From an uncultured Planctomycetales bacterium (lineage in GTDB: Bacteria; Omnitrophota; Gorgyraeia; Zapsychrales; JANLHA01), in assembly GCA_964374105.1 (NCBI GenBank), contig CAYJXI010000001.1, positions 135,743 through 199,742 on the forward strand: 64,000 nucleotides of DNA. Reading direction: 5' to 3'. The notes below the pieces were generated by a model that was not told where the DNA came from, did not search any database, and saw nothing but the letters and a program-made list of their open reading frames with translations. Shown here piece after piece: positions 21,001-48,000 of this stretch. The first letter of the stretch is position 1, and every line of letters starts with the position of its first letter. A program made the translations under genes and the position numbers.

Positions 21001-24000
21001 TACAAACCATTCAGGTATTGCTTGAGACATTGGCAAAGATAGATTCCCATCGAAAAGAAGTAGAGGCCTTCCCTATTGTTGCCTTTAAAGATTATCTTGT
21101 CCGATCGCTTGAAAATACTCCCCAAAAATTAAAGAGGGAGTTTAGAGCCTTATTAGATCAAAAGAAGGCAACAAAATATGTCAAAGAAGGATTAGCGCTT
21201 TTGATTAAGGCTTGGGCGAGTGGTGAAAAATATATAAAGGATCTTGCCGATGAGCTTTTATCGGAGGTTGAAGAAAAAGGGGACAGTCCCCAAAAGGGGA
21301 CAGTCCCCAATGATATGTTTGATGCTTTAATCTTTTTATCCCATCAAGAAAATTACAAAGAGTTTGTTAAAGATTTACACAGAATTGTCTGGGAGACCGA
21401 ACAGATCCGAAGCCTCAAAGAAAAGACTCGTGCCTTGAGATTCCTTTCCATTGCTCCAGGAGAAACAACACCGGAGGCCTTAAAGACATTATTACTTCAC
21501 GAAGATAAGGAAGAAATAAGAATAGAAATCTTAAAGACTTTAAAGCAAATCGAGGCTCGACAATTCAAGCGGCGGGATTTCTTTAAGGCCTCTTTGTTTG
21601 CTGTGGGTGCATTGGTTGGACTTTCCTTAAGAAAAGGTCAAGGTCAAGCCATTAATCCAGAAGAACCCTTAGATTCTAAGAAAGGCATTGGTTTCCATTA
21701 TGCAAAGAGAATTGAGTTCAAACCATTTGATGAAACCCAATTCGCAAAAGACACACTTGCCTTGGAGGTCTTTGTGGTTATGGGTGAGTTTATACTTGAA
21801 TATGCCTCCCTTTTAAAACAGAAGAATCCCAGTGATCTTGACCAAGCAGATCTCAATCAGTTTAGACAGCTTAAGGCAAGAACAGTCGATCGACTTTTGA
21901 ATATTGATTTACGAATCAGTCGAGAATTTGCGGGCTTTTTAGATCAACCGAGTTTAAGTCAGGAAGAAGAGACTCGCTTTAATCAGGTTGTCTACCATAT
22001 TTTGCCGCGTTACTTTGCCAAACGCGGAATTTATTTCTACACCGAATGGGAATTGGTCCGGCACAATCAAGGGTGGCTCGTTTTGGATCAATTTGGTCTT
22101 TATCGAGTTGATCAAGTCGAAGAATACAAGCAAACCCTTTGGGAAGGCCAAGAGGTTGTTTCATCAGAAATCCATATCTCGGAAACCATGCAACTCAAAG
22201 GTGTCCCAGTTGAGAGCAAAGCCAATATTTTGACTCCTCATGAGAAATATCTCAATGTCTTTATTCCCAGAGAATCGGTTTCTTCTGGGGTCATGAACAT
22301 ACAGACACTCCTTGACGTAACGCTTAAGCGATTCAAAGATGATCCAACGATAGGACCATATCTCACTAAGGATTGGGAGGTGATCTCAAAACAATGGAAG
22401 AAAGATCCTCTGCATTTTGCAATCTTAAAACTCCTTTTGGAGTATGAAAATATTCTTACAAACAAAAAGCTGGGAGAGCTTTTTGTCGAAACAAACAGGA
22501 TCCACGAGTCGTATCACATCTTAGAAATTCTTTTAGGCCGAAGACCCTTAAAGTCGGCCATCTCTGCCGATCAAGAACAAATGCGACGATACTTTGATCA
22601 AAGGATTGTGACCAGTGAAATGGGTGCTATGATCACTCAATTGCGATTTGCCTCGGCGGAACATTGGCGATGGGGATTCAATCGATTCCTGGATACATTT
22701 TATGAAGAAGAAGACTTCAACTGGCGGGTTCGGGTCTACAAACCTAAGTTTGCCATTATTGATTTTGTAATCAGTGCCATTGAGGATAACCTTCAAAGTT
22801 TCTCCAATATTGTTGTGGAGGATCCCTCGCCATGGACAAAACGAGCCCAGATTGCTGCCCAGCTCTACAAATTGGATTATGCTCAGTTTATCAAGCTGAT
22901 CAATGCCGCCCACCAGTGGCATGAAAGAAATTATAATAATCCGATTATCCCGGATGGTCTTCTTAGAAACGATCTTTATTCAAAACGGTTAATACAACAG
23001 AAAATCTATTTCCCCACTTGGTTTGAACAATGGGGGAAAATAGTATTAGGGGTTTCCGCTGCCATGGTTAGCCTCATTATTGGCGGATTAACAGTTTGGT
23101 ATTCCAGAATAAAACATAAGGCCAAGAAAGAAAAAGGGGACAGTCCCCAAATGGGGACTGTCCCCAAGGAAGGGGACGGTCATGATCCCACCCGAAGCAG
23201 CCGGCCGCTCAGTAAGGTAGAGAGAAAACGCCTCTCCCGCATCCTTGATCGATCTGCCGAAGAGATTCGCTCAAGCCAGCCCGCCTATGAAGACCAGAAA
23301 CAAAAGTTGGCATCACTGATCCCAGCCGAATTCAACCATGAATTGGAGATCCTCAAGTGGTCGAGGGTGATCAATGCACCGCCAGCATTGGTTGAGGCGG
23401 TCCTTACCCTTCAGTCAGAAAGTCCTGATAAGTTAGAGATCCAGGCCTTAAATACTCGCTTGGATGATCAAGATTACATCATCCTCCTGCCAATCAATCA
23501 AAACAACGAAGAGCAAGTCCTTCGCTCTATCCTTCATGAAGTTCGGGCGATCAGTCTGCGAGGCAAGGCTTCCACCGAGGAGATTCATCGCCAGGCGGAA
23601 GCCTTTGAGCAATGGGTCCAGACTTCATCTCTAAAGCAGGTGAGCGATGAATCCCAAAGACAAGATCAGACAGCGGAGGTATCGGATGAGAACAAGACCG
23701 ATCCGCATCAATGGAAAAATGCCGGAGATATCCGTTGGGCATTTGGTCTTACCAAGGGAGTTGCCGATCAGCTTTGGGAACTCTGGCAGCACATGCAAGG
23801 AAGGCATGGCGAGTATGCTGTTAAGGAATTAGACCGCGGCCTCAGCAAAGAGAATATTAAAGTCAGGGGACTTCCGGCAGAAAAATGGATTAGGGAGATA
23901 CGACCACAATTGAAAGGTTTGAGCATCGGTCGAGTTGTCCATTTTGCCTTTTTTCATATCTTAGCGAAGGACTTAACCCGCCACCTCCCTGTTCTTGAAC

Positions 24001-27000: not shown

Positions 27001-30000
27001 GGAAGGGGGCAAGGGGGGCAAGGGGGGCAAGGGGGGACAGTTCCCAAATGGGGACTGTCCCCAATGACAATGAACCCAATGAAGGGGGCGGCCATGACCC
27101 CACCCGCTCCAGCCGGCCGCTCCAGGATAGAGAAATTGAAAAAATTGAGGAAATCTTGGCTAAATATCAGGCCTTGATTAAGGGTGCTTCGTCTCTCTAC
27201 GAAAGGTTCAAACAAGCTGTCATTGACGTGTTAAGCAATAATCCTGGATACCGACAAGAAGTGGATATCCTTAAAGGCGCTAAGCTAATTAACGCCCCAC
27301 CTCAGATGTTGCCCGAAATTTATGCTCTTCAAGCAGAAAGCCAAGACCTGACCATTTATGCGTTGAATACAACTGTTGATGGTAAAAATGCTATTCTCCT
27401 TCTGCCTGCCACCCGCACAGATGAAACCCAGATCTTCCGTTCAATCCTCCACGAAATCAAGGCTATTCAATTATGGGGAACCGCAACCCTAGAACTCATC
27501 CACTCTCAGGCGCAAGCATTTGAAGAATTAGTAGAAAGAATTCCATGGCCATCCGTTCAGACTGTTATCCACGAATTCAACGGCGGTACCCACGAAGAAA
27601 ACGAAACAGTCAAAGCGGAATCTAAAGATTATCGACAGGCGGAAGCAGAAAGTTCGATCCCAGAGCCATCGGCTGCTCCTCACGGACAAACGAAGGGATC
27701 TAAGAAGAATAGGCAGCACGCCAGCATTCCCGAATTATTATCTGACTTATCGGATCCGGATGAATTTATACGTTCTGAGGCCGAGATTGAACTCAGCCTC
27801 AAGGATAGACTGCCATGGGATATGCTTTTGGGATATATCAAGAATCCTCCCATTCCTGTCAGGGATGATGAACGCTATTCAGCCGGCCAAGAATATAATC
27901 CGGAAGCCATTCGCAGAGATATTCGGATTTCAATCCTGAAAGTCCTGGGGGATAGCTTGAGCGATGAGGAAATAAGCGGCCTTAAGGGGAAAGCATCAAA
28001 ACGGGACAAGGTCAATAAAATCCTTCAGGGCATGGCTCAACAATGGAAACAACAGGACGACCTTTTACTCACCCAGTTGATCACGAAGAATCCTAATAAT
28101 CCTCTTGGCACAGAAGAATCGCTGAATTTATTGCAGGTGATGGCGCTTTTGATTCATTGGTATATCAAGTTAATGAATAAAGACAAAATTAGGTGGCATT
28201 ATGATTCCCCAGAGGAGATTCTCGATTATACCTTAGTTATTTACAGCAGAAATAATTGGTTTAGCCTGTACTATTTAGGTTATGTTTATGAATCTATCCG
28301 CAAGATTTATCCGGAAATTCAAGATGCCGTTGGTGAGATCCTATATGGTCTTGTCTTCAAGCAAATCAAAGGTTCACGGAAGGCCAAAGAGAAAGAAGAT
28401 CAGACTATTCAATTGAAGAGAAAATCTCCGAGACCTTCCGCAAAGGGCCGCAGAGGATCTAAGAAGGCTGACGAAGAGAATCTTCCGCCAGCCATGCAGC
28501 CAAAGTTCAAGGAGCAATTTGCGGAGGCGTTCGAGCACTCAGAAGAGAGGTTATTGGTTGAAGCGATTGTTCCGCGATTAGAAGAGCAAAAACGCGGTTT
28601 CTGGTGGCGGACTCCTCCCGAAAAATTCGTTGAGGATCACGAAGAGGTTTTTAATACCAAATTAGGAAAATGGCAACCACCTACTAAAAAGGAAAGAGAA
28701 ATCCTCCTTGAGCTTGCTAAAAAAACTGATCGCGCTTTCCACCGTGCCCGGCGGTTTGCGGTTTATCGAATAAAGAAAGAGATCGCCCAAAATGGAAGTT
28801 TATCGTTAATTATGCGATTGATTAATTCTATAAGATTGACTGTTTTATTGAGAATGGCCATTGCCTCTCGTGAATTTGGTCTTAAGGCCGCCATCCGCGT
28901 GCATCAAAGATTTAACCGCAAGCCCAAGTTTGGTTTCTATGCCATGGCTTCTGTTCCCAGTGATCAGAAAGATCATTCCTCCTTAACCTTTGAGGACATT
29001 TTAAGTGGCGAAAGGTTGCTGGACCATCCGGTGGTTCGGGAGCAATGGGAAAGGATTCTCCTTGATCAAAAGATCATTCATCATGTGACCAGTCGTTTAG
29101 CCAAGCTGTTGAAGAGATATAAGAGTTATTTTCGAATTCCGTTGTCTGAACGAACGGAGATTGAATCGCTGATCCCATTTGAGCAAAATCAAGAATATCT
29201 CCGGTATTTCTTAAGTTGGGCCTTTTTAAGATTCGAGGCAAAAGGCTTGGTGAGACTCCTGTCGGCTGGTTTTGATGATGCAGTCGACAAACAAGCCCGA
29301 CGTTTTGCCGCCACTCTTATCCTCGTCTTGGCAATCAAGAAGGCCGAACTTAGTGCACAACTTTTGGCAAGGAACAAAGCGACCCTTAAGATCATTGAAC
29401 AAACCCTCTCTTCGCCAGAGGTGTCTCTCCTTGTGATGCAGGAAGAAAAATCCCTCACAGCATTTAAGGAATATATCTCAGCCCAATGGGCCAAGATCCC
29501 TCATCTATCAGCCTCCTTGAAAGAACGACTGCTGAAACACGTGTTTGAGCTTTGGGAAGAAATTATTTTGAAACCGGCAAGGTTTACACCCTTAGCAGAA
29601 GAATATCAAAATAAGTTCTTTATCCGTAAGGATATTCAAGCTGCCTTACCAAAAGAATTTAAACAGAATCCTTTGGAATTCTTAACAAAGATTCAAAGAG
29701 TCACCCGGGATTCCCGATCTCCGGGGTTGGGGGATATTTCGATCTATAAATTCCCTCATGTTTACAGCCTGTTGTCGATTAAAAAGGATGTCTTGGAATA
29801 TCCTGATTATCGTTCAGACAAGGTTATGCGTTTTGAATTAAAGGATGATCGTACGCTCTTTTTGAAGCGGGTTGATTTTTTAAGAGTACTCCAACCGGAT
29901 GAGGAGATTCATGAGGCTCGTCGGTTCAATCTGGTTTTACGCGCCGCGGGTAATGAACGCTTTGCGGTCGAGGAATTTGTTGGGATTGTCATGATCGGCG

Positions 30001-33000
30001 GCTTGTTCTACACCCTGGCGGTTGGCGAGCTTAAGGGTTCCAATATGGAAGATTTTGATAAGAAGATCCTGCGCCGGATGGTTAATAAGGCCACCTGGGA
30101 TGAGGACGAAAACATGTACGACGCCTCAGTTTTAGGTAAGATCATTGAGGTGAATATTCCCGACTACAGTGATCGCTTCCGTATGATGAGGCGGAAATTC
30201 AATTCAGAAAATCAACTCTTTGATCCGAATACCTTTGCCATGCTGGCTGAGCCCTTCTTGACGGCCCTTTACGTCGCGGTCAAACGCGGCTATCGTGAAT
30301 TGCTTTCTATCGTGAATCCTCACGGCATTGAATTCGCACCTAGAGACATTATCTGGACCTTAGGTCCGCGTTATGAATTCCGGTTTATCCTCCTGGATTT
30401 CGAGACGTACTATAAACCGGATTTGACTTTAGAGACAGAGGATATTGAGAAATATCATTACTGGAGGCAGCGGTTGTCTTTATCTAAGGGAGAGGAGGGA
30501 CATCATCCTCAAGACCGCCACCCACCTGCCATGCAGCCGAAGTGGGAAGAGCGTTTTGAACGTGTGCAGACCGATAAACAAGGGGTGTACGATTATAAAA
30601 AACATAGGACGATGAGCCAAGAAGAGTGGTTCGTCACGGAGGTTGTCTCTCAACACGAAGAACGCGCCCGCGGATTCTGGTGGCGCGCCTCACCGGAAAA
30701 ATTCGTTCAAGATCACCCAAAAGTATTTTATCGCGCCCGCAACCGATGGGATACACCTACCCAAAAAGAACGTGCCATTCTTTTAGCCCTAGCTCAGAAA
30801 TCTGATCGTTTCTTCCATCGCGCCCGTAAGTTCGCGGTTTATAAAATGAAGCAAAATTTCTTCCATAAGCCGTTGATGCGAAGGTTGGTGCCGTTATTTT
30901 TGATCGGTCGAATGATTGATTTTGTGGTCAGTTTTGGAATTGCGTTTGATTCCCGCCAGTTCGCTTTAAGGGCGGCCGTTAATGTCCATAAGCGTTTTAA
31001 CCACCGGGTTTTCCAAAAGGGTGGTTTCTACGCAATGGCAGCCAAAAATGTGAAATATTCAATCTGGTCTAAACCCGTTAAAGAATTGTTCAATACCCAA
31101 TCTGGTATCGGTGACTCAGAAGCAAAAGGTAACAGTCACATTTTAGGAAGACAGACACTTGCCATGCAGCCGAAGTGGCGAGAGGCTTTTAAACAAATCA
31201 AGACGAAGGACCAAGCGGAAGAATTCTTATGGCAAACTGCTATTCAGGAAGAGACTGAACGTACTTTGGGTTTGAAACGTCTAGCATGGCAAGAATTTGT
31301 AGACAAACACACAGAGGTCTATGACGTGAAAACGGGTCACTGGCGTGAACCAACAAAACATGATCTCAGGGCGCTAGGCCGCCTAGCCCGTAAGATCAAT
31401 AAGATTTTTTATGAAGTCTTAAGCGATGCTCTTGTTTCCTTGTACGAAAATGTCCGAATAGATTATGAGGTCAACTATCCGCATATTGACAACGAAGAGC
31501 GTAAACGGCTTGTTGAGACTGAAGTCAAAGAAAAAGCACTCAAGGCTGCCCTGTATACCGCCATTGAGGAACATTACTTCTATAATCTCAATGTAATGCA
31601 AGCCGGCCAAGGCATCCTGGCGATGGTCAGTAGAGAAGGAGATAAGAATCGGAAAGATAAGAAAAAGATTCATAAAAAGGAAAAGAAAACTGAAAAGTTA
31701 ACGGCCAAAAAGGTACATGATCGCGCTTATGAAGCATTCGCTCAGTCTTTAGGCGAAGAAAGGTTTACTGAGCATAGCACGATCAGTGTTTTTAGTGAAA
31801 AAGGATGGATGGCAATATCCTTGAGCCTGGATGAATTAATTGATTGGTCCATCGCGACAACAGACGTTTTTTCCTCTGCCTTGGAAATCCTTGAGCCAAT
31901 CCTCGCTGAGGTTGGGAGCAAAAAGTCAGCCGAGGAGATTGTGGATTATTTTGTCGGATATTATGGAGAATATATAGCGAAGAAGGATGAACTCGATACG
32001 AAGGACGATTCCGCCTTGGAGCACGGGTTTAAAGATACCCTCCAGAAGAGACTTGGGCAGCCAGAAGAAGAAACTACGGAAGAAGTTGATGAATTAGATG
32101 ACATTGAAGACGATGATGATACTTATCCTTTCGCCATGCAGCCAAAGTGGCAACAAGCATTGAGCGAGGCCTTAAAAGCCGGGGATACCGAGCTGCTGGA
32201 ATTTCTAAGAGTGACCGCCCACCAAGAAGAAACATCCAGACACCGCGATACCCAGCCGGTCTCTGCCGAAGAATTTGCTAGATGGCATACCGAAGTCTTT
32301 GATGCTAATCTCATGGACTGGCGGCCGGCTCAGGAGGCGGATTACACGATCCTACTTGAACTCGGGTGGCAGACCGATACTATCTATTATCACACCTTCC
32401 AAGTAATTTATCGTTTCACCAGCGACATTGAGCGGGCGCATCATGTGGCCCTTAAGGTGGCCGCGGAAATTCATCTTCAACATAACCTGCATCAGTTTGA
32501 GGCAAGAGTTAACCCGAAAGAGCGGCCGCGCATTCTAGCTATTTCCGCAAGGGGTGTTGCCCATCAGTTTGTGGAGATTCCTCATCAGGTTTATGTGATT
32601 TCGGGTAACGCCTTGGTCGAGCAGAAAGGCCTTATCGATTTTGGAGTTGCCGAGGTTAGCCGTTATCCGAATGCGGTCGTAAAGAATGTTGCTGTTGAAA
32701 CAACCGGCGCTTTAATTCATGGCGGTACGATTTGGTGGGGTGTGAGGCCAGAGTTGAAAGATCGCCGCGATATCACCCTCGAATACCGCAAAGGCCAACC
32801 TTACCACGCTTGGGCCGGGGATCGGTATCCCACCAACTTCTTGCATCAGCCGGATAAGAATGTTCAAGAAATCACCGTTGAACCGGAACTGAGCAAGAAA
32901 GAAATTCTTTTGTGGGATAAAGGTGAATTGGTCTTGGCCTCCGGCCGCATGCGGCAGCAGCTTATATATTTCTCTATTTCTTATGGCGAAGAGCGGGCCT

Positions 33001-36000
33001 CCTTAGTTATTAGGCTTAAAGAGGAAGGTAGGGAATCTTTTAAGGTCAAGGCCTTTGTCATTCCCCAGGAATCTATCCCAGTTATCCGCCAGAAAGGGAT
33101 TCAGAGTTTAATCATGGCGACGTTTGCGGATGTCAATCACGGCCTGCTTTTAGGTTTATTTATTCCTGAGGAATACGTTAAATGGCTTCGTGGTGAAACG
33201 CCAGCTGTTCCGTTAGTCGTTTATGCCTATTCCAAGAAGCATAACTCCTCGCGGATCGCTGAACCGTTTATCTTGGATCTGCAGAAGATGATAAAGGGAG
33301 AGACGATTGAGCTAAGGCCTCAGGGAAGTCCTTGGTGGTACGGAAAGACAATTATGAATGTCTATCCTGATTCCCATAATCAGGCCATATTGCGCGGTCA
33401 TTTGAAATTTAGACTAGACGCCTTTGATCTTTTAGTCAATATGTCTGTCAAATTAGACCAGGAGTTTATTAAGAAATACGGCAGGGCCGACAAGTTTGAG
33501 GTCTACGCCGTTATCCAAAGGGATCCCAATCATGGTTTTGTGGTTACGGTTTATCACAAAGATGATTTTAATCCTGACAATCTTGAAAGTTCAAGGGATC
33601 CGTTGATGACCTATGCTTTGTTGGGAAGCAAATGGCGGCCGGTGGATTTGGCGGTGTTGGATATTATTGCCTTTAGTGAGGGGAGAAAAGACCTGGCGGC
33701 GACCGGCCGGAAAGTAAGGAGGAAAGCCTTTATCCTGAAAAATACTAAGTCAAGATTTTTAGGGAAAGGGATCGTGACGGTCAAGGCCGTTACGGATCAA
33801 AGATCCTTGGCCAAGACGGTGACCTTTGGTTTTACACCTGAGGAAGTCAGGCGCCATGATCTTGAGAATAATCCATTGATCTTTGAGTTAAAGGTTGATT
33901 CCGACTTTGGTTCCTACCTGAATATTTCTGTTGAAAGAAACGGTCAAGAAGAGTGGATGGCGACTTATTACTGGATCGCTGAGGCTAAACAGCAGCACCG
34001 GATGCGTGTTGATTTTAACCGGCTGGCCTTGATTGACCATGTTTCGGGGAAGCCCAATATTCACGGGCAGCCGGTTAAGCCGAGAGTCTACAGCCATGAC
34101 CTGCCTGTTCCTAACGGCGGATGGATTGTGCTGGGCGTCGGCCCCGAACGGCGGCTGAACGTTTATGGATTAGAACTGCTTAAAGGCAAGGTTCCGATAT
34201 TTATTCCTGAACCTCATGCGGAATACGGCTGGGTGTTCAACGTGCATGATGTTGAGGCCTACCTTAAGGATCGAAATCGCAAACCTGATGTTGTCTTGAT
34301 TAAGGACCGTAAGCGCCGGGACCCGAATGGATATGCCTTGGTTTTGAGGGAAGGATCCGGTATTGACTTGATTGACCCTCAGCGGGAGATTCCGATTACC
34401 AAGCGGGGATTAATAAAGCATTTTCATGATAAAGATGTTCGTGATCATTTCTTTGCCTTTAAAGAAATGATTGAGCAAAAGGCCGAGGGCAAAGATCTGG
34501 TTGTGATTGAAGGGATTCAGTTCTTGCAAAAACAGTATGTGGCAAGGGGGGCAAGGTATACGCAGTGGGTCTTTGCCCGAGGGGATATTGAGGCGGTGGC
34601 GCGGTTGACGGGCTGGCGGCTGAAGAGACAATCCGGCGGCAAAATCAAGGAGGACGAACAGGCGGAAGGCATGGCAAAAACTATCGGGCAGGCGAGTGTT
34701 GTGTACCAGATTTCCGGCAACCAACTCATCAAGGTGGGGGAGATGAACGCAGGGTTTGGGCCGGAAGAGGCAGCGAGTTATTCCGATGTTATTGTGAAGA
34801 ATGTCCGAACGGAGGTAACCGGTGCTCTTATCCACGGCGGCGTGATTTGGTGGGGGGCGATTGCAGATTTAAAAGACCGGCGTGATTTAACGGTTGAGTA
34901 CCGTGGCGGTCAACCCTTTCGCGCTTGGGCTGGCGATCGCTATCCCACCAACCGCCTGGATCAGCCGGATGAGGACATTGCCGCCATCATCATCCTTCCC
35001 GAATTGACACAGAGAGAGGTCATTTTATGGGATAGAAATCAATTACCCTTGGGATCCGGGCGCATGACGGAACGCGTGATTAAGTTTGAAGAAAGCCGCG
35101 GGGTCGAGCAGATCAATGTCAGATTCCACGATCGCGAAGTAGGGGTTAAGGTTCTGGTGATCCCTTATGAGTATGCGGTAAGAATTCGTGCACAGCGTAT
35201 CGAAAAGGCCGTTGTGGCTACCTTTGTTGATGAGTATTTAGGATTCTTTGTAGGAGTTTTTGTCCCCAATGATTATGAGAAATGGCTGAAAGGGGACGGC
35301 ACAGCCGCGCCTTTAAGTGTCTATGCGGTTGCGGGAAGACATCAGAGAGCAAGGATAGCTGATCCTTTTGTCATGGATATCCATAGACTGAGTACCGGTC
35401 GAGTGATTAAGGTGAGGCCTTCCGGCAGTCCTTGGCGGTACGGAAGATTTGCCTTGCGGCTGCAAAAAGATCATTCCGGAAAGAGCCAGTTATTTCTAGG
35501 ATCTATAAGACTTAGGTCATTGGCCTTTGATATTAATGTACGGATGTCATTTTCCATTAGCCCCGAAGAGGCCAAGAGACTTGGCATCAAAAATAAGGAT
35601 CAACTGTATGCGGTTATACAGGAGGACCCGAATCATGGTCCTATCGCCCAGATATATCGTTTAGAAGATTTTAATCCGAGCCAGCCGGAGAGTTCCCAAA
35701 ATCCGTTAAAAACGTATACCTTCTTTGGGGACAAGTGGATGGCCGTGGATTTAGCTGTGCTTGATATCCTGGCTTACGGCGAGGGAAGAAAGGACCTGAA
35801 AGCTTTAGGCCGGCAGGCCAGAAGAAATGTTGTCATCAAAAAGTCCGGGGATGAACGGACCGGTAGAGGGATAACGACCGTAGGGTTCTTCTTTTCAAAG
35901 CGAAAAGGTCAGAATGATGTTTTAGGTAATCGTGTGACCTTCGTATTCTCTCCGGCGGAGGTGAAACGGTTTAATTTAGAGAATAACCCGGTGATTTTAG

Positions 36001-39000
36001 AAGTGAAGGTCGATGATGATTTTGGCCCCTTTGTCGAGATCTCTGTGGAGAAGGATGGCAAGAGAAAAGTCATAGGAACGAATTATTGGATTGCCGAGGC
36101 CGTCAGGCAGCATAACATGCGTGTAAACTTAAACCGTTTGGCTTTAATTGATTTTGTTTTAGGCCGGACCAATATTCAGGGGTTGCCTATTAAACCTAGG
36201 CCGTATAGGCATTTTCGGCCTGTCATAGATGTTGGCCAGATTCAATTAAGGGCAGGGCCGAATCGTGCCATTTATATTTATGGGTTAAGAACATTACGCG
36301 GAAAGAAGCTGATATTTATTCCGAAGACAAGCCAGAAAATTCCCGGAAGGTTTTTTGCGGTCCATGATATCGAAGAATATAAAAAGAACAGGAAGCGTGA
36401 CCCTGACGTGATTCTGGTGAGGGATGCCTTGGCCAAGGCCCTGGTTCTGTTAGAGAGAAGAGAGGTGCAGTTTATTGATCCGCGCGAAGAGGTCATTGTG
36501 TCGAAACGGGGATTGGAGCCTTATTTTAATGCGAAGGCCGTCAAGGAAAGCGAGGTCTTATTAAGAAAGATTATTGCACAGGCGAAGGGAGAGGGTGAGG
36601 TTGTTATCGAAGGCATTCATTTTTATCAGAAAAGGAGACAACACCGCAGCAAGAAGGCGGTTATGGTCAAGTGGGTGTTCAAAAGGGCTGATATTCTCCG
36701 GGTGGCGGACATGATGGGCTGGGAGGTTAAGGGCAAGGTTATCGGCGCCTTCACACAGGAATTGAATGTTGATCGAAATATCGTGTATATCATTTTTGAA
36801 AATCAATTAATCAAACAAGAAGGTTCGTTTGCAGAGTTTGGTGCCCAGGAACTCCAAGGATATCCGAATGCGGTGGTGAAGAGCGTCTATACCGACACCC
36901 GCGGTGTGCTCATCCATGGGGGTGTTGTCTGGTGGGGCGCGAGACCAGATTTAAAGAACCGCCGCCATATTACCCTAGAATACCGGGAAGGGAAGCCGTA
37001 TCGGGCGTGGAACGGCGACCGTTATCCTACGGACCGGCTGGATCAGCCGGATGATCGTATTAAGTCGATTATCATCGAGCCCGAATTGACACCCCAGGAA
37101 ATTATCCTGTGGGATCAGGGGAAGATTGATTTGACGCCGGGCCGGATGATGGAGAAGGAGATTTCCTGGGTCAAATTTAAAGGAGAGGAAAAGGTCCAGC
37201 TGAGACTCCATGGCGGCAGCCTCGGAGAAAGGAATTTGATTGTTCCCGATGAACATCTGGCGAGGATGAGGCACGAGAAGATTGAGAGGATAGTTATCGC
37301 CACTTTTGCCGATGAGAATCTGGGATTGCTTTTAGGTCTTTTTGCTCCGGAAGATTATCGTCAATGGCTTAAAGGGGATCTGACGGTTGTGCCGCTCAGT
37401 GTCTATGCGTATTCTCAAAAGCGCAAATCTGCCCGGCTGGCTGAACCGTTTATTATGGATCTTTATCAGTTAAGTCAAGGGAAGCCCATTAAGGTTCGGC
37501 CGGACGGTAGTCCTTGGAAATATCGGAAGACCAAGGTCCATATTGTTATAAGCGATAGCCCCAAGAATCCCATGACTGTTTACTTAGATATGACGTTACG
37601 GAATTTTGATATCAAATCCATACGTTTGAGTATACCTCCCGAGAATATAAAGAAATTGAATGTTCATCGGGGAGACGAACTTATCGTGGCCATCATTGAG
37701 GACTTAAACCACGGTCCAGTGGCTTTAATTTACCGCGGCCAGGATTTTGATCCCGAGCATCCCGCATCATCAGCCAATCTGCTGTCGACTTATACCTTTG
37801 TTTATGGTAAATGGCGGACGGTTGATTTAGCGGTTCTGGATATTGTCGCCTTTACCGAAGGTCGGAAGGATCTTGTGGCTGCCGACCGACGGTTAATCAA
37901 AAAGGTTTTTATTTTTAAGGAAGGCAAAGGGGCTGTCCAGATCTATCTTTATGACAATAACAAGCGGATAAAAGATATCGTCTTTTCGTTTACGGCAGAA
38001 GATGTAAATCAATTTAATTTGAGGAACCAACCGGGTATTACTGAATTAAAGATAGATACGGATTACGGGCCTTACATTGAATTTTCTGTTGAGGAGGATG
38101 GGAAAACCATTGTGATTGGCACCAACATCTTCTTTGAAGAAGGCGAGAGGAGAATCGTCCGCATGGATTTAGACAAGCTGCGATTCATTGATTATATTTT
38201 AGGAAAAACAAATATTCATGGGCTTCCCATAAATCCGACGCTTTATCGTCATCCTTATGTTGTGCCTAAGGCAGGCGCAGTGAGTTTGCGCGAACGGGAG
38301 CAGACGGTCGTCATCCGCGACTTAAATTCGCTTATCGGCCGTCAAGTTATCTTTATCCCCGAGGTCCATCCTAAATACGGCTGGGTATTTAAGGTTCATG
38401 ACAGCCAGCAATACATCAAGAACCGTCTGCGTCACCCAGAGGCCATTTTAGTAAAAGCCCTTGAAGGAAATGCCTTGATCTCTCTTCAGAAACTGGAGGC
38501 TGATATCATCCATCCGGAAAGGGATGTGATAATCTCGCAGAAAGGATTGTCGGCTTATTACAGTAAAGCCGATACAGAAAATTTTGCAGCTCTCATCAAG
38601 AAGATCGAAGAAGCGGCGCAAGGAAAGACAGAAGTCACCCTAGAGGGTATCCCCTTTGTCAAGAAGCGATATGAGCATTATAAAGGACAAGGGTGGACTT
38701 TTGGCAAAGACGATATCTTCAATGTCGCTAAACTAATGGGCTGGAAGGTCAAGAAAGATATTATCCAAAAATCTTTAGAGGAAGAACTGCATAAGCTCTT
38801 TGAGGAGCAGGACCTTCTATTTTTGGCCAGTCGGTATTCCTTGGATATCAAGGACATCCTCTGGAAGCTGATCGGTTATCAGCTTAAGGGCCAATATGAT
38901 GAAAAGCAGATAGAATCTATTCTCAATCAGACGATTATTTCTATTATTAACCGTTATATCGAAACCAACGGCATTGATGAGGCCCTTAAGCACGCCCGGG

Positions 39001-42000
39001 AGCCGGAAGGAGAGATCGCCGCACCGCGGTTTTTAGAGGATGTTGATTTGTCGCAGGAAGATATTTCCAATATCGCCCGGCGCATGGATTACCGAATCAA
39101 ACGCCGGATTATTAATGAGGGTCTCAAAGGTATGGCGCGAAGCCAAGCGGTGGCGTTTATTAATAAGCTCGAGGAAAGGCATTTCTACAAGAATCATTTC
39201 AGTCCCCAGCCGGACCGCTTTACCTTGGAGAATGCCCGGCAGGCGGTTGAGGATACCCTGGCCCAAGAACAGGAGAGTATCGCCAAAGAAGCGCTGGCCC
39301 GGTTGCTGGAAGATGTCAAGGAGGCCTTGAGTCTGCAGTCCCAACTGCATGAAAAGGGCTTAAGCCGCAAAACCCATCTTAATCTTTATCAGCTGATGGC
39401 GGTCATGCGCATTGTTGAGAGAAGAAAGATTCTCTTATCCGATGAGATGGGCCTGGGCAAAACCTTGGAAACGATTGCCTCGTTTATCATATCCGATACT
39501 AAAGAGATGCTGGTTGTGGCGCCCAAGGCAGCTTTAAACCGTTGGATGGATGATCTGGCCAAACACACGGATATGGATATTGAACTGGTGAATCTGACCT
39601 ATGAACCGTTAGCGTTATCATTACAAGATAATGCCAGGATTAAAGTTGTGGAGATAGCGAAGGCTCGTAGCCGGTACAAATATCTTATGTCTCCACGTGC
39701 CCCACCCAAGAAAGGAAGAAGAGTTATCCTGATTAATTATCAAACCCTGCCGCGCCTGCAGAAGTTCAAGGAAAAAATAGGCCGCCACCAACCCATCACG
39801 ACAGAATTTGTTGCCCTGGATGAAGCCCACCTCATCAAACGCGCCAGCACCCGTACCGCCAAGGCTATTTTCGGTATCACGCAGATTCAGCAAGCCTTAC
39901 AGGCGGGCTATAAGGTCATGTTGACCGGGACTCCTCTTGAGAATGAACCTAAAGATTTATTTGTTTATTTGCGCTATCTGTCCCTCGGCGGCGATTCCCA
40001 TGCCGAGAAATTGTTCCAAAGCATATCGCAGAAGGAATTCGGCTTGATATTTAAGAAAACCGATATCGGCCGGCTGTCGATGCTTTCGGGATACTTGGCC
40101 GAGATGATGATACGACGCCTTAAAGATGATGTGGTTAAGGGCCTGCCGGAAAAACAATTCGTAAGGGTTAAGATTGAACCGTTGGCTAAGACGATGAATG
40201 TGGGGGGGCTCTTCAGCGTTGCCTTAGGCGGCGATTACCAAAAACAGATGGAACTCTATAACCTCGCCATGGACCGGCCGGATATCTTTGAGCATTATGT
40301 TGAGGAAGGGATATTCCAGAGGGAAGAGGAATTAAACGAGAATATGTTTGATGGTGATACCTCTGGTTTGTCTAAGGCCAGGACATCGCAGCTTTTGCGC
40401 CTGGAACAGACCGCGACTGATCCTTCGGTGTTTATCGAGAACGGGGTTATTGGAATCAAATTCGTTGCCGCGGCGCACCTGATTCAAGAACGGCTTAAAC
40501 AAGGAAGATTTATTCTAGTATTCACCGATTACAGAACAATTGCCGGGCATTTCCGTGACTATCTTCTTCGCCAGTTAGAGAAAGACACGAAATTCAGCCG
40601 CAATGACGTCGTTTATATCGATGGGACCATTACTGGACAGGCCCGTACACAACTCATGGCACGGTATCAGAAGGCTCAAGCCCATGTCATGATTGCCACC
40701 ACGGGCACCATGGGGGTCGCCAATGAACTGACCCAGACCGAAACAATTATCTTTTTGAACAATCCGTGGAAACCATCGAGTTTAGATCAGGCGATTGACC
40801 GGGCCCACCGTCTGGATCCCTTACGGAATTATCCTGGCAAGGTGTTAGAGATTATCCTTCTTGAATTAGATGTCGCGGTGTCGATAGATCATCTTAAAGG
40901 CATTGTCTTAAGAAGAAAGAGAATTTTATCCCGGATGATTGTTGACGGTGATCTTTCACCGGAGATCCTTAAGGCGTTTAAGGAAACAGATATCCGAAAG
41001 AGCATCATCCGCGAGATTGAAAAAGGTGACGTGGTTTCTCTCGATGAGCATGAGATGACGCTCTTACAGCAGTTCCGATTGCTTCTCTCGCAGGTTCTCC
41101 AAACCAAGGATCAGGCCGAAATGCGTGAGCTTTGGGATCAGGCCGCCCATATGTATCTTGAACTCTTGGAGCATAAAGGCTCCTTCTTTGCCAACATGGC
41201 TAACTTGGAGTATTTAAGTGATCCCAAGCACGGCGAATTAGAAAGACTCTTCCCGCAGGCCAAACAGCGGCCGCTGGTTGTGGTCGATTTAGGTTCAGGG
41301 CCTTCGACATTACAGCGGGCGTATGAACGCCTGAGCCAGCGCGAGAGCTTTAGGCAAAGAAGATTTACCCTGCGTATCAAGGATTACGATATCAGCCCCC
41401 GGATGCTGTCTTTGGGTATCCACCGTAAAGACGAGCAGATTGTCGGGACATTTGAAGATTTGGATAAGGCCTTTAAAGAGGAAAGCGTTGATATGGTCAA
41501 TATCTCTTTTGCCTATCGCTACATGTCTAATCCGGCTAAGGTCCTTAGGGCGGTACATAAGATTCTCATCGATAGTGGGATTTTAACTTTGATTTTGCCT
41601 AAGAGCAACAAGATTACAGAAGAATTTATCCAAGCCTTAGTTCAGCTTGGTTTTGTTATCAAGGTCGGCAAAGGCGCGAAACTACAGTCGCAGTTAGATC
41701 AGGAGACTTACAATAAACTCCGTCACGAGTTCGGCCAGGAATTTGCCAATGATCTGGCGGATGAGGTCAAGGGCGAGTTTACTTATCTGGTGGCCGGCAA
41801 GCAAGGGGTTCCTGCGCCAAATCTGTCCGTTGAAGAGTTGAATAAACAATTGGTATTGACCCGAAGAAAGCCGGTCGCGGTAAACAAAGAAAAGGTTAAG
41901 AAATTCATTTTTGATAAGGCCAAGACCATGATCCTGCCACCAGAAGGGGCTGTTGAAGGCAAAGTCGTTTATTACCAGGATTTGGTTAAGACAGAAATGA

Positions 42001-45000
42001 ATCAAGATATAGAGACGCAAGCAGGACAATCGGTGCCAGCCACCACCAATCATCTTTATCAAAAACTGGTTACGGCTATTAGCCGGATCTCGAAACTGGC
42101 CCATCGTTATCAGACATTAAATGCTATTGAACCGAGGTCCCTGCGAAAGAAAGAGGTTATCAATCAGAAGATTGAAAAGAAATTCGGTTTATTAAGACAG
42201 CAGATTTTAGAAGGGCTAAATATTCTGAAAGATGATGAAAGAAGGGATTTGTTAATTCGATTGGCTGCCTTAAAAGAACGCGACAGGGTTAGACAATGGT
42301 TTGAGGATTATCAGCCGCTTGTCGACTTGATGGATGTTGTTTCAGCCAGTACGACAGAGGAAAACGGTAAGGCATTGAGTGAGACAGAAGACGATAATAC
42401 CCGACCGGACGCTGATCCCAGCCCCTTCACTGGCATCCAGACACCTGGTCTTTTAGTGCGCTGGAAGGCTGAGTTTAAAGATATTCTTAAAAAGGGCGAT
42501 GAGAAGATTATCGAATATTTAAAAGAGCGCTCCTATGACGAGGAAGTCATGCGGCGTGTTTCGAGGCAGCCTGTGACACCGACCGAATTTGTGAAATGGC
42601 ACGCCCGTGTTTATGATGTCGCCAAAGGGAAATGGCGAAGACCGACTGTGGGGGATTTGTCTTATCTTTTCAGTCTGGCTAAGGAAACAGATCAGGCTTA
42701 TGAACATGGTAGGAACGAATTTTTTGAAACATATCTTTTTTCACCGATTATCGACATTGATCGAGAAAAGGTGTTGATGCAAGCCAACGAGGCCGGAATC
42801 CGGGCTGCTGCCCAAGTGCACTTTGATTACAACCAGCGTATCTTTAAATCCGGCCAAGGTATCCTGGCCATGAACCAAGATGGTTCATGGCTGGCGATGG
42901 CGGGGAAGAAAAAAGATAAAAAATATCGTAAGCAAAGACAACAAGATTTTCCTCACACATCTTCTTCAAAGGACCAATCCTTAGCTAATATTCAAAGCCA
43001 GTCACAGTCTCAACAATTTTCCACTTATCGACTGAGTGGAGGAGCAATCCTTTTAACCCGACTACTTCCAGAACAAATTCAAACTTTGGATAAGTATCCA
43101 GCCGTTGTCTATGAGGATAAGACAGGTCGTTTAAGAGTGAGACAACCCGTAAGAAGATACTTCATAGATGGAACTCCTTTAAGCAAGATTAATGAAATAC
43201 TAAGCACGCGTCTTGTAGAAACAATTACGGCCCTTGCTCAAAGATTCTCAAAACGAGTGGTTGTGGTTCTTGATTGGGGTGTGGGCAATGGAGTCGCATT
43301 ATCTCAGATAGCTGAGCAGCTTTTTCAGAATCTGACTAACGTACGATTAATAGGATATGCAAATCAGTATCTACCGGAGTGGCAATCTTATGATGAGCGA
43401 GTCACATTCGTTTTAGATGTCCTGGAAAAATTACCGATTTATTTCAATCCGGGAGAAATTGATATTATTTACAGTTCTTTTGGATTAGAGCAATTAAGAC
43501 CAAAGGCGCTTTCTGATCACCTTGTACAGTTAGCTCCACTCTTACATCCGGAAGGTGAGATTCGGATGACTAATCCTGGTCAACGTACCAGACGATATTT
43601 GGAACAACTACAAATTTACTTTACTATCGAGGGTGGTGAAAATGATTTAAAACAGCCACGCATTTCACCACTTGCACTCGTTTGGGCCCACGCGGTTCGC
43701 TTCACACTTAAGCAAAAACAACAAGAAGGTGACGGGCACTTGAAAGAGGGACAGGAAATGCAAGATAATACTCCGCCTGCCATGCAACCAAAGTGGCTCA
43801 TTAGGTTTAAATTTAACCGTGCCTTAAAACGCGCCGAGATTTCTCGGTTCCTTCAAGAAGCCGCATACAAAGAAGAAGCCAAGCGGACGGTCGGTTTTGA
43901 ACGTGCTCCACCGGAGAAATTCGTCAAAGCCCACAAACATGTCTACGATGTAAGAACAAGCAAATGGCGCAAACCCACCCAAGATGAAAAAGCACAACTT
44001 CTTGAACTGGCCCATCAAACAGACCAAACCTATCGAGAGGCCTTTGAAAAGGTTCTTCATGAAGCAAAACAAATGATCTTAACCGCGAGCACATTTAACC
44101 TTGGTTTCGAGATGTTCGCTAAGACCAGAGAAGTTGCGCGTGAAATCGGCATCGCCGCGGCGGCGAAGGTCCACTTTGACTACAACAACACTGTATTTAT
44201 GGCCCAGGAAGGCATCCTGGCCATGAACCAAGATGGTTCATGGCTGGCGATGGCGGAAGACCAACCTAAATACATAGAAGGTCAATTTTCTTTAGATCAA
44301 TGGAGTAGAGTGATGATTAACGGCAAAGAAAAAGACAGAGCGAGGGGATTGCGAAAGATGCGTTTGATTAATCTCCAAGATATAAGTCAGGAGGACTTCC
44401 TTTCCATTATCGCGGGATTAGTATCAACTATCACATCAAGGGCTGGCAAATCGAGAAACCGTATTGTTGCCGTTCGGTGGCTGAATAAGGTAATGGATAA
44501 TCTCGATTTCGCAAAATTTTCCTCTGAATTGAGAAAAAACATTGAAGGCTGGATCAATCTTTTGGGGGATGAACTGGAGCGTTATGGGCCGGTATCTTAT
44601 TATGTCCGAGGCGAGCTTGTTATTATTTTTGAGAAATACGGCACGATTTTAAGTGAAGAGTCTCAAGCGGTTTTATTCCACGTCATTTATCAGGCGATGT
44701 TAAAAGAACCACATCACCGAATACAGGAAAGAGAACTTTCAACGTTAATAACCTTGGTCCGCGGAACACCAAGGATTGGATTTCGATTTATGAACTCGGA
44801 TTTTGAGATATGGGTAGAAATGACAAGATCCGAGCTAATCGCGATATTATTCGGTCTAAATATTTTAGGCGAGGATAATCATTTCAGGCTTTTTGCGGCC
44901 TGGCTTTTGAGTTTTAGACAGGGCGATGATATTGCTCAAAAAGTAGCACTGTCAACTTTACCGTTGGCAAAAGAGGCTTTAAGTGACACAGATGAAAGAG

Positions 45001-48000
45001 GTCGATGGATAGCAAAAGAATTATTAAAAACTTATGAGGAGATGAAAGACATAGATTCGATTTCCCATATTCCACCCGCCCTGCAGCCGCACTGGCGGCA
45101 GGAATTCGATAAGCATCTAAAAATCGGGAATATTTTACAAATAATTGACTTGGCGGCTAATGTAGAAGAATGGAATCGCTCGCAGAATTTAACCCGCGGC
45201 CCGCCAAAAGAGTTTGTCCGGCCGCATGAGATGGTTTATTACGCAGACCGTGGCGTCTGGAACAAACTGACCTTCGGCGCCATCAGAGCGCTATTTAGAT
45301 TAGCCTATCAAACCGACAAAGCCTATTGGCAAGCCCGCAACGAATTCCTCAGTTACGCTAAAATTATTCTGAATCGTTCTACCGAAGATAAATTCGATCA
45401 AGAATCTGACCACCTCATTCTCGAAATCGCACATCGTCTCGGCGTTGAGGCCGCGATCGTTGTTCATCGGAATTATAATTTAGAGGTTCTGATAAAAAGT
45501 CAAGGCATCCTGGCCACCACGGCTTCGGAAGACGAAGCCAAGCGCGGTGGCTCCGGCAGCTCTGGTTCACATCGTGAACCAGCGGGAGCGATGGCGCAGA
45601 AGGATAAGAAGCGAACTCGGGATAAACGCTTTTCAGATGATACGCGAATCATCCAGTGGCGTCAGCGTCTAACTGAATCTGAAATTCTTGCTGTTAGTCA
45701 TCGATACAGTTCCTTTGAAAATAAAGGTAAAGGAGATGGACTCACGCCTGAGGGTGTTAACTATGTTAAGTTAGATCCAGAAGGAAGCTCCTTATTTCAT
45801 CTTGACTATTACTTGGAACGCATCAAAGCTAGATTTGGTGAAAAACTTGCTGCCAACAGAGAATCCTCGCTGGAAGTCTTGATGCTGGGGCCTGGGTATT
45901 TCTGGCAGGCAATTGTGGCGATGATCAAGGTGTTCCCACAAATTAGAGTTATCCATTTAGTGGAGCGTGATGCCAAAGCGCTAGAAGCTCTTGATCGCAA
46001 ATTGTCTGAGTATTCGGCTGTTGAAACCATGCCGGATCTTTTAGCTTATCAGATCAATCTGCTTGAATTGCCAGCGAAACTTACCAACCGTATCCATTTG
46101 GTGTTTGATGCAGAGCTTTTTGATCCAAATCATTTTTCACCAGGACATATCTTGCAGGCGCAAAAAGAATTAGTGAGGGTGCTAAAGCCAGGAGGGCTTC
46201 AGATCAGCTGGGACGTGCAACGCATGCCCGCTTATCATGACACGTTGCCTGTCGAATCAATGTTTGATTTGATGGCCAACCTTCATTTACGGCAACCAGA
46301 AATGGAAAAAGGTGACAGTCATCTTGGGGATGAGGATAAAAGAGACCATCCCCCCGCCATGCAGCCGCGCTGGGCGACGGAATTTGATACGACACTGAAA
46401 GAAGGCCGAGGATTAGCATTCGTTGAGGAAGTGGCTTACCGTGAAGAGATGGAAAGAACGACCCAGTGGATACGCGCCCCACCGAAAGATTTTATAAATA
46501 ACCACAAGGTCAAAGGTGTAGTGAGAGTCTACGATACCGCCCTTCACTATTGGCGAGGTGCCACCCGCTGGGACATTGGCCAGCTTCATATGTTGGCCTA
46601 TCTGACCGATGCCGAATATTATCTGGCCTTTTTGGAGGCGTTAAAGTCTAGAGAGAATGTTGAGTCCGCCCGCCGGGCCGGGATCAAGGTGGCCGCAGAA
46701 AGACATGCGCAATTCAATAGGGATGCCTTCTTAGCCAAGAAAGGCATCTTGGCGATGGCCGATTCATTTAAGCGAAGCTCGCTTAAGAGGCGCAAGGCGA
46801 TGGCCAATAACGGGCGCTTATCCAAAACTCATCAACTTCAGATTGATAGTGCAAAGTATCGAGATGATCTGGATTCCCTGCAAGCGAAGGTTGACTTATC
46901 TCTATCTCAAGGTCAAGAGGTTATGCTAAAAGTGGGCACGAAACGTTACCTTCTCCTTAAGTCTATAGGAAAGGCAATCTACACTGTGCAAAGAAGGAAT
47001 CCCAATGGGACCTTGGAGCGAAAATCGGTGCTGAGGCTTATCACTTCTTATCACGATGGCTTTGATATGGATCATCTGACTTATTATTATCAACGGATAC
47101 AGCCTAAAATCAAAAAAGATCCTCATCTTATCAATCCGTTTGTGGAAATCCTGTATCTCAATAAGAGATTGAAGATTTATGAGATGGAATGGGTGGAAGG
47201 GCAGCCGGCTTCTTTCCTTGATGACAGGATTCAACAATTGAATATTATCCTTCGATTGATGAAAACATTGGCTTACATTCATAAGCAGTATAAGGTCTTT
47301 ATGGGTGATGTGAATATGGCGGGGAATGTCTTTGTGACACCTTCAGGAACCATTAAACTGATCGATTTTGGAGAAATGCGTTTGTATCTTGGACGAAAGC
47401 AGAACATAGAAAGAATACATACCGCTAAGAAATTTTATGAGATTTTAAGCATCGCTGAAGATATTTATAAATTAATTTTTGGAAGATCTCCGAGAATTGA
47501 TCAGCATTTGATAACAGTGCTGTTTAACGAAGGCGAGATAGAGCCACGTCATTACCTATATCTTAGTTATGATGAGATCGAAAAAAAGACATTGAGCAAA
47601 GGAGAAAAACTGATCTTGAATGCTCTTCGTAAGGCGATCTTTGCCCAAGGGACATATTATAAATCCATGGAGGCATTTTATGATGATCTGGTTAATACCT
47701 TGGGTAACAGGGATCAAGAAAAATATGGGAGTCACGATCGGCAACACCCTCCTGCCATGCAATCCTTATGGCGTAAGGGATTTGAAGAGGCGGTGAAATA
47801 TCAAGAGGTGCAGGAATTCTTAGAAGAGGTGGCTTATCATGAGAAAGCCAATCGATCTGAAACCTTTGAACGGGCACCCCCCAGAGAATTTGTCGCTGGT
47901 CATCTTAAGGAAGTTTATGATGTGGCTTTACGCATTTGGCGCAAACCTACCCTTTCCGAATTGAAGACTCTTTATCGGCTGGCGAGGGAAACCGATAAAG

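Follow-up and report, generated by a model that had tools for sequence, protein, structure and literature searches.

The stretch of DNA analyzed here, referred to as the window, comprises 64,000 nucleotides (nt) of contig CAYJXI010000001.1 from an uncultured bacterium of the Omnitrophota. It contains three consecutive in-frame units of about 700 amino acids (aa) each, which lie inside one giant reading frame and end shortly before an SNF2-family ATPase. The repeated block appears to represent a new, phylum-restricted family of three modules with no recognisable fold, and the central module, the core, appears to have a systematic place upstream of SNF2 ATPases and sigma-70 modules. Tentatively, the triple unit is interpreted as a non-catalytic, multivalent targeting array of the SNF2 motor encoded downstream.

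Identification of three tandem units in a giant open reading frame

On the plus strand, frame +3 contains 21,332 codons and 0 stops between nt 3 and 63998 and runs off both ends of the window. The number of stops in each of the other five frames ranges between 872 and 1693, and besides the giant open reading frame (ORF) the longest ORF has a length of at most 181 aa. Since a single stop-free frame spans its full length, the window is an internal piece of one giant gene, and the chain of Pfam domains along the frame identifies it as a multi-enzyme gene fragment.

In this frame, codons 10863–12930 (nt 32589–38792) form three head-to-tail units with no spacer at the joints. The borders were obtained from self-BLASTP of the translation and from a unit profile. 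Unit 1 has a length of 704 aa (aa 10863–11566; nt 32589–34700, plus strand, 2112 nt), followed by unit 2 with 694 aa (aa 11567–12260; nt 34701–36782, plus strand, 2082 nt) and unit 3 with 670 aa (aa 12261–12930; nt 36783–38792, plus strand, 2010 nt). Three collinear full-length self-matches were found, with offsets of 704, 694 and 1398 aa. The identity is 46.7% over 689 aa for units 1 and 2 (603 bits, E=0), 44.4% over 684 aa for units 2 and 3 (575 bits) and 41.7% over 681 aa for units 1 and 3 (E=1e-179); overall, the scores of the unit pairs range from 522 to 612 bits and the E-values from 1e-179 to 0. The unit profile matches exactly three copies in the 21,332 aa (aa 10863–11555, 11567–12260 and 12261–12930).

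The aligned motif blocks are GALIHGG..WWG, GDRYPT, LWD, KWRxVDLAVLDIxAFxEGRKDL, IFIPE..YGWVFxVHD and EGIxFxxK, of which the YGWVF block is altered in unit 2 (PGRFFAVHD). Every unit is closed by the short motif D(I/L)xxVAxxMGWx(V/L)K (aa 11528–11551, 12230–12253 and 12904–12927).

An in-frame tandem triplication had already been proposed from the letters of this stretch (in the following, the sequence-only reading) and is borne out by the three collinear self-matches and the open frame. The span of 32590–38790 and the unit lengths of 2115, 2082 and 2015 bp given there lie within a few bases of the borders determined here, and all motif blocks quoted there are present in the alignment, apart from the departure of unit 2 at YGWVF.

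Modular architecture of the unit

By mapping the homologue matches onto the unit, each unit was shown to be a composite of an N module (about 100 aa), a core (about 490 aa) and a C module (about 95 aa). This had been missed in the sequence-only reading: the unit consists of three separable modules with internal repeats and is not one domain. In unit 1, the N module, core and C module are located at nt 32589–32888, 32889–34358 and 34359–34643, in unit 2 at nt 34701–35003, 35004–36458 and 36459–36743, and in unit 3 at nt 36783–37085, 37086–38495 and 38496–38771, all on the plus strand.

The N module (unit residues 1–100) was found in stand-alone six-copy arrays in the homologues P0004 and P0009, and the C module (residues ~590–685) in stand-alone four-copy arrays in P0038, P0039 and P0048. 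In most homologue matches the core (residues ~100–590) occurs without the other modules. The most widespread part is its C-terminal two thirds (residues ~300–585).

Homologues and their distribution

When 1.84 billion representative proteins were searched exhaustively with a profile, only 58 related clusters were identified. All named homologues (8 out of 8) belong to Candidatus Omnitrophota or Ca. Gorgyraea. To date, the families of the N, core and C modules are known solely from proteins of the Omnitrophota type. With a word-indexed search nothing was found using either the unit or the 28-sequence family alignment despite the presence of members in the collection, which is taken as a sensitivity limit of that search. 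The unit alignment gave no match in viral, genome and metagenome contigs. With P0002 as query, only a spurious match of 32 residues was found in the genome contigs, and the metagenome contigs returned the contig of P0002 itself.

The gene for P0014 is located downstream of hrcA-grpE-dnaK-dnaJ and that for P0002 beside mutS/mutL, and the genomic contexts of P0014, P0003, P0006 and P0002 give no functional clue. P0002 is a stand-alone core-SNF2 protein encoded by a 2,283-aa ORF on the metagenome contig L002 (105–16846). Directly ahead of it and on the same strand are a 2,912-aa ORF and an overlapping 492-aa ORF, with mutS and mutL alongside. The 2,912-aa ORF equals the core-bearing homologue P0044 in length, and the two were matched by length alone. 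This cluster of ORFs has the appearance of a giant gene that is split into pieces or about to fuse.

Of the 54 homologues with a length of 300 aa or more, 28 begin with a sequence resembling a Sec-type signal peptide, as called by a crude hydropathy rule and not by SignalP, and proteins of the sigma and SNF2 types are included. In many cases a conserved A|L-x-P-(I/W) motif comes next, which takes the form A|L(R/S/A)P(I/W) in many sigma-type proteins. An export leader on a sigma factor is unexpected.

Association of the core with SNF2 and sigma-70 modules

Unit 3 is followed by a linker of about 200 aa (nt 38793–39416, plus strand), comparable to linkers of 159–207 aa in six homologues, and then by the SNF2-family ATPase (nt 39417–40814, plus strand). 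The latter is composed of an SNF2-related domain (aa 13139–13390; Pfam E=1.7e-26) and a Helicase_C domain (aa 13493–13604; E=1.5e-09). Its motifs I (GLGKT), II (DEAH) and III (TGTP) are intact, and its best relatives in the PDB are the Sulfolobus SNF2/Rad54 helicase, ISWI, CHD and INO80.

The unit-ending motif was found once more in this linker at aa 13020–13043 (EDISNIARRMDYRIKRR, aa 13030), possibly as the remnant of a fourth C module.

An SNF2 ATPase is present in 10 of the 58 homologues. The distance between the end of the core and the SNF2 domain is 159–207 aa in six of them (P0001, P0002, P0005, P0013, P0026 and P0036; confirmed by Pfam), and the order of unit 3, linker and SNF2 in the window is collinear with the single-core homologues P0001, P0002, P0005 and P0036. 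SNF2 is likewise preceded by N-module arrays in P0004 and P0052 and by a C-module array in P0048.

In 23 of the 58 homologues the core is followed by a sigma-70-like module, which starts ~110–290 aa, typically about 200 aa, past the core. Sigma70_r2/r4 domains were confirmed by Pfam in 4 out of 5 tested homologues, NCBIfam gave RpoS/RpoD-like matches for the sigma-type homologues, and three homologues are named sigma-70 family sigma factor at NCBI. Combined, these data place the core systematically upstream of SNF2 and sigma-70 modules and show a conserved adjacency.

The proteins in which the core is combined with an RpoD/RpoS-like sigma-70 module have a length of 1,100–6,000 aa and sometimes carry 2–4 such cassettes in one polypeptide. 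Core-sigma proteins are P0007, P0008, P0012, P0014, P0015, P0017–P0019, P0021–P0025, P0027, P0028, P0031, P0034, P0037, P0043 and P0049.

The first class-I S-adenosylmethionine (SAM) methyltransferase past the SNF2 ATPase is located at nt 41235–41642 on the plus strand (aa 13745–13880; Pfam Methyltransf_11, Methyltransf_31 and Ubie_methyltran). A defence system with SNF2 and methyltransferase, as in DISARM, Zorya and Dpd, was considered and rejected: the unit has no PADLOC match, the PADLOC matches of the SNF2 ATPase span the generic ATPase core only, and the methyltransferases are of the small-molecule-type class I and are not DNA methyltransferases.

Sequence conservation and predicted structure

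The sequence-only reading had recognised no fold in the unit and had suggested the structure prediction of one copy. Using the 28-sequence alignment, the AlphaFold2 model of unit 1 reached a mean predicted local distance difference test (pLDDT) score of 80, with values >90 for residues 100–590 and of 82–90 for the greater part of the C module; for lack of alignment depth, the N module was not modelled. An earlier run with an alignment of the three units only (pLDDT 43) was unusable and was replaced by the 28-sequence run. In the model the core consists mostly of beta strands, with short helices.

Similarity between elements of the core was detected with hhalign for A (residues 149–196) and C (279–326; 95%, E=2e-8), for C and E (407–452; 96.6%, E=5e-10) and for B (205–262) and D (330–400; 82%, E=1e-5). 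The core is therefore a tandem array of three to four modules, each about 125 aa long. In 28 diverse sequences the near-invariant columns of the family are solely D, G, N and P, located at turns; a conserved column of His, Cys, Ser, Lys or Glu was not found in this set. The units are basic, with isoelectric points (pI) of 8.7–9.9 and net charges of +5 to +31.

The absence of a recognisable fold was upheld. No significant match of the unit was found in Pfam, NCBIfam, PADLOC and the PDB sequences, and the confident model gave no significant Foldseek match in PDB and BFVD. The top-ranked Foldseek targets in both libraries have the PCNA/beta-clamp fold and were rejected, with E-values of 1.6e-3 to 1.4e-2 at best, a probability of at most 0.16, a TM-score of about 0.1 and a root mean square deviation of about 19 A. 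A weak lead is the DNA-binding family PF04014 (MazE/SpoVT-AbrB), which is matched by 3 of the 29 copies of the repeat element (best E=4e-5); the whole unit reaches E=0.053 and 13.9 bits, compared to a cut-off of 24.7.

For the N module no Pfam match was found, and its best PDB match, the SPOA domain of SpaO (E=0.024), is not significant. The sole link of the C module is a weak match to DUF6301, the source of which is the stretch of the unit-ending motif. Bro-N/KilA-N was rejected for the C module, since 0 of 16 copies match at E<=10 in Pfam and none in a PDB profile search.

Age of the triplication

The codon-aligned copies of the unit are 53–55% identical at the DNA level, i.e. 45–47% of the nucleotides differ, as do 53–58% of the residues. 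The proportion of synonymous differences between units is 0.78–0.84, which is saturated, compared to 0.35–0.38 for the non-synonymous differences. Differences in unit length are accounted for by many small indels, and no 50-codon window of the units with outstanding DNA identity, indicative of recent conversion, was found. Because of this low DNA identity, the in-register stretches detected by DNA repeat tools, spaced by 2082 and 4152 nt, are few and short. The run of Tandem Repeats Finder, which was confined to periods of at most 500 nt and thus blind to the 2.1-kb unit, reported short repeats only.

Given the saturated synonymous sites and the low DNA identity, the triplication is ancient, and assembly collapse or a recent expansion is excluded. 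This agrees with the sequence-only reading, in which a protein identity of roughly 40–55% (measured: 42–47%) had been taken as a sign of an old duplication. Assemblies classically go wrong at tandem repeats, but the probability of an artefact or a very recent tandem repeat behind the three copies is negligible: the copies are too divergent, contain many indels and keep the frame open throughout, and copies this divergent can be neither collapsed nor invented by an assembler.

The difference between saturated synonymous and lower non-synonymous changes indicates that all three copies have been kept under long-term purifying selection. A neighbour-joining tree of the cores groups unit 1 with unit 2 (92% bootstrap) and does not fix the branching order of unit 3 and P0001, the closest outside homologue. 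This suggests that the first duplication and the separation of distinct single-copy lineages are of about the same age.

Repeats inside long Omnitrophota proteins are the rule, with 65% of these proteins repeating a Pfam domain, and their DNA similarity is mostly dissolved (Nielsen and Lui, 2026; 10.64898/2026.06.07.730766). The triplication as such is thus nothing unusual but a known, typical feature of the giant genes of this phylum.

Possible function of the triple unit

SNF2 enzymes are ATP-driven translocases on double-stranded DNA. Their specificity is provided by accessory domains, usually located N-terminally, such as the N-terminal domain of RapA acting on RNA polymerase, the chromodomains of CHD and the HARP repeats of SMARCAL1. 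The position of the core upstream of two modules associated with DNA or RNA polymerase, the lack of a catalytic signature, the basic charge and the repeated beta-alpha elements argue for a targeting array as the candidate function of the triple unit. In such an arrangement the motor would move along DNA at the expense of ATP, and the three units, basic and rich in beta strands, would bind its substrate in a multivalent manner, whereby the triplication would raise avidity or reach. The substrate would most likely be either nucleic acid or the transcription machinery, since sigma-70 modules of the phylum, too, have the core as their standard partner on the N-terminal side. The triple unit would then form a functional whole with the SNF2 ATPase that follows after about 200 aa, a connection that the sequence-only reading had missed. 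That the units bind, what they bind and what is gained by having three of them are points that we infer.

Several observations weigh against a targeting array. SNF2 is limited to the 10 homologues mentioned above, and P0003 and P0006 stand alone, without an adjoining SNF2 or sigma gene. The charge of the units is not distinctive, as the whole giant protein is basic too (pI 8.8). The AbrB-like similarity is weak, with a probability of 11% in hhalign against verified AbrB, Abh and SpoVT sequences, and a match of the AbrB type was not found by Foldseek in the PDB. The signal-peptide-like starts of 28 of the 54 homologues, those of the sigma and SNF2 types included, and the near-zero cysteine content fit an exported protein and are awkward for a role on the cell's own DNA, and the published view of giant proteins favours surface adhesion and cell-wall degradation.

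A generic structural or protein-protein scaffold is rather unlikely. The units would be spacers, oligomerisation platforms or folding (pro-domain) aids with no role on nucleic acids, and the adjacency to SNF2 and sigma would reflect shared cassette ancestry and not joint function. This would be in line with the lack of catalytic-type conserved residues and of a fold match, with the 4–6-copy arrays that the N and C modules form elsewhere like typical scaffold repeats, with the occurrence of stand-alone homologues without SNF2 or sigma and with the richness of giant Omnitrophota proteins in repeat scaffolds (Nielsen and Lui, 2026). However, the core-first order and a spacing of ~160–210 aa before the two DNA- or RNA-polymerase-associated modules are kept in 29 of the 58 clusters, which is hard to explain without a functional link, and strong purifying selection has acted on all three copies since synonymous saturation. 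That each unit is instead a divergent catalytic domain, tripled for dosage, is very improbable. The surrounding protein is indeed a chain of enzymes, and repeated enzyme domains are common in giant proteins (Nielsen and Lui, 2026), but only turn residues are conserved, with no column of His, Cys, Ser, Lys or Glu, no enzyme family or fold was matched in Pfam, NCBIfam, the PDB sequences and Foldseek, and the core itself is a repeat of small beta-alpha elements.

It is unlikely as well that the units, the SNF2 ATPase and the neighbouring enzymes form an exported, host- or prey-directed module which leaves the Omnitrophota cell and acts on or in a host or binds its surface. The signal-peptide-like N-termini point in this direction, although the calls depend on a crude hydropathy rule, and so do the strong hydrophobic segments that flank the segment-free stretch of about 13,000 aa holding the units. 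A count of 2 cysteines in 21,332 aa is typical of proteins exported unfolded, as is known from the passengers of RTX proteins and autotransporters. Extracellular roles have also been proposed for giant proteins (West-Roberts et al., 2023; 10.1101/2023.11.21.568195; PMC10066038). In contrast, the same stretch contains enzymes that depend on ATP, SAM and acetyl-CoA (SNF2, methyltransferases, kinase-like and GNAT domains), which are absent outside cells, and Pfam and Foldseek gave no similarity to known adhesin or carbohydrate-binding folds. As a further, quite improbable variant, the core could mark exported Omnitrophota proteins that carry sigma-70 or SNF2 into a host or prey cell, where the units would dock on the DNA or RNA polymerase of the victim and the attached motor and enzymes would reprogram or dismantle its transcription. 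The signal-peptide-like sigma and SNF2 homologues, the near absence of cysteine and the core-sigma proteins would be compatible with this, and if true, a bacterial predator or parasite would deploy secreted sigma factors and motors resembling chromatin remodellers as effectors. The leaders, the cysteine count and the segment-free stretch are compatible with a cytoplasmic assembly tethered to the membrane, with an assembly that is exported and acts on a host cell or inside it, and with a mere scaffold.

Few known genes are as long as the giant genes of the Omnitrophota, the greater part of which carries no annotation. Here, 6.2 kb of such sequence could be assigned to a defined three-part module family with a confident predicted structure. 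Its repeated connection to two DNA- or transcription-associated engines provides a testable handle on a segment of a giant protein and raises the question why proteins with sigma factors or SNF2 in a predatory or parasitic nanobacterium carry export-type leaders.

Further features of the giant protein

Along the giant ORF, Pfam domains of GT4/GT1 glycosyltransferases, Bac_transf, PALP (a pyridoxal phosphate enzyme), HEAT_2 repeats, the SNF2 ATPase with Helicase_C, class-I SAM methyltransferases, HAD, His_Phos_1, PPDK_N and PEP-utilizers were identified. ABC1/kinase-like and GNAT domains gave weak Pfam matches, either below the cut-off or with no stretch passing alone. No Pfam match to SecA_DEAD was found in the 21,332 aa of the window, past which the gene continues; a divergent SecA_DEAD domain is present in most full-length giant multi-enzyme proteins of the Omnitrophota (Archaeovorin type).

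A Kyte-Doolittle scan, the only method used here, revealed six strongly hydrophobic segments resembling transmembrane helices (aa 1458–1489, 1930–1958, 2570–2601, 6714–6745, 7677–7701 and 20705–20731). The approximately 13,000 aa between aa 7701 and 20705 are without a strong hydrophobic segment and contain the units, SNF2, the methyltransferases, the kinase-like, GNAT and HAD domains and His_Phos. The units and these enzymes would so share one compartment.

The two cysteines of the giant protein are located at aa 17469 and 19183. In-frame TGT and TGC codons occur 1 time each in frame 3, compared to 161–459 of each in the other plus-strand frames, and the cysteine content of the unit homologues is 0.07–1.4%. 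This extreme avoidance of cysteine would fit unfolded export or an oxidising location. The GC content (0.47–0.50) and the GC skew (+0.20) have their maxima in the window at 34001–38000, i.e. in units 2 and 3, compared to ~0.38–0.47 and ~0.02–0.17 outside this region.

Two families of shorter repeats were found by iterated profile search within the ORF. Adaptor family A is a helical repeat of about 150 aa, which starts with PPAMQPKW, ends with GILAM and has invariant F, H, W, L, A, H and N positions. Its 11 copies in the window, all on the plus strand, interleave with enzyme-sized inserts (methyltransferase, kinase-like, GNAT) and are located at nt 28485–28946, 30522–31037, 31155–31625, 32127–32516, 42441–42872, 43773–44225, 45072–45518, 46350–46757, 47748–48209, 48828–49298 and 49833–50279. 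Copy 4 (aa 10709–10838; score 124.8, E=1.8e-40) stops 24 aa ahead of unit 1, so the placement of the triple unit straight after this copy in the sequence-only reading is correct. The term payload used there, in the sense of an independent cargo, is an interpretation. No Pfam match was found for family A, and no homologue in a word-indexed search, a tool of limited sensitivity. Adaptor family B, a second repeat of about 145 aa with the start DPTRSSRPL and a conserved LHE..A motif, has six copies on the plus strand (nt 23184–23609, 27096–27524, 54846–55268, 56394–56885, 57774–58235 and 61419–61853). Neither family was found in any of the 58 unit homologues.

Comparison with known systems

Giant proteins of the Omnitrophota have been described as 'Archaeovorin' proteins (West-Roberts et al., 2023) and as 'multi-enzyme metabolic clusters' with ancient internal repeats (Nielsen and Lui, 2026). 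The window resembles them in its ORF of more than 21,000 codons, in the presence of GT1/GT4, methyltransferases, HEAT_2, PPDK_N, HAD and GNAT (West-Roberts et al., 2023; Nielsen and Lui, 2026; PMC10066038) and in internal repeats at the protein level with dissolved DNA similarity. Its scattered hydrophobic segments may correspond to the numerous transmembrane helices of these proteins. SNF2 or sigma modules are not mentioned in either study (10.1101/2023.11.21.568195; 10.64898/2026.06.07.730766). Unlike the repeats counted in the Omnitrophota surveys, the unit of the window is invisible to Pfam and so would go uncounted there.

The first element of the internal repeats weakly resembles SpoVT/AbrB/MazE (PF04014), a swapped-hairpin DNA-binding domain, in its order of strand, 'IP', short helix, strand, turn and strand, and the hhalign register between the two is as expected. 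In contrast to the AbrB half-barrel of about 50 aa, additional strands and a helix come after the element, resulting in a module of about 125 aa. The core also resembles sliding clamps (PCNA, DNA polymerase III beta) in being composed of repeated beta-alpha-beta elements, which is a likeness of repeat texture and not of fold.

RapA/HepA is a bacterial SNF2 ATPase with beta-barrel N-terminal domains that bind RNA polymerase, CHD is an SNF2 ATPase with tandem chromodomains, and SMARCAL1 carries tandem HARP domains. The unit has no sequence similarity (Pfam, PDB) or Foldseek similarity to the N-terminal domain of RapA, the chromodomain or HARP. Compared to these accessory domains, the array of the window is far larger (3 x 700 aa) and is located inside a giant polypeptide and not at its N-terminus. 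As in RapA/HepA, CHD and SMARCAL1, however, a repeated non-catalytic module is placed directly N-terminal to an intact SNF2 motor, and the core of the unit is also attached to sigma-70, another protein associated with RNA polymerase.

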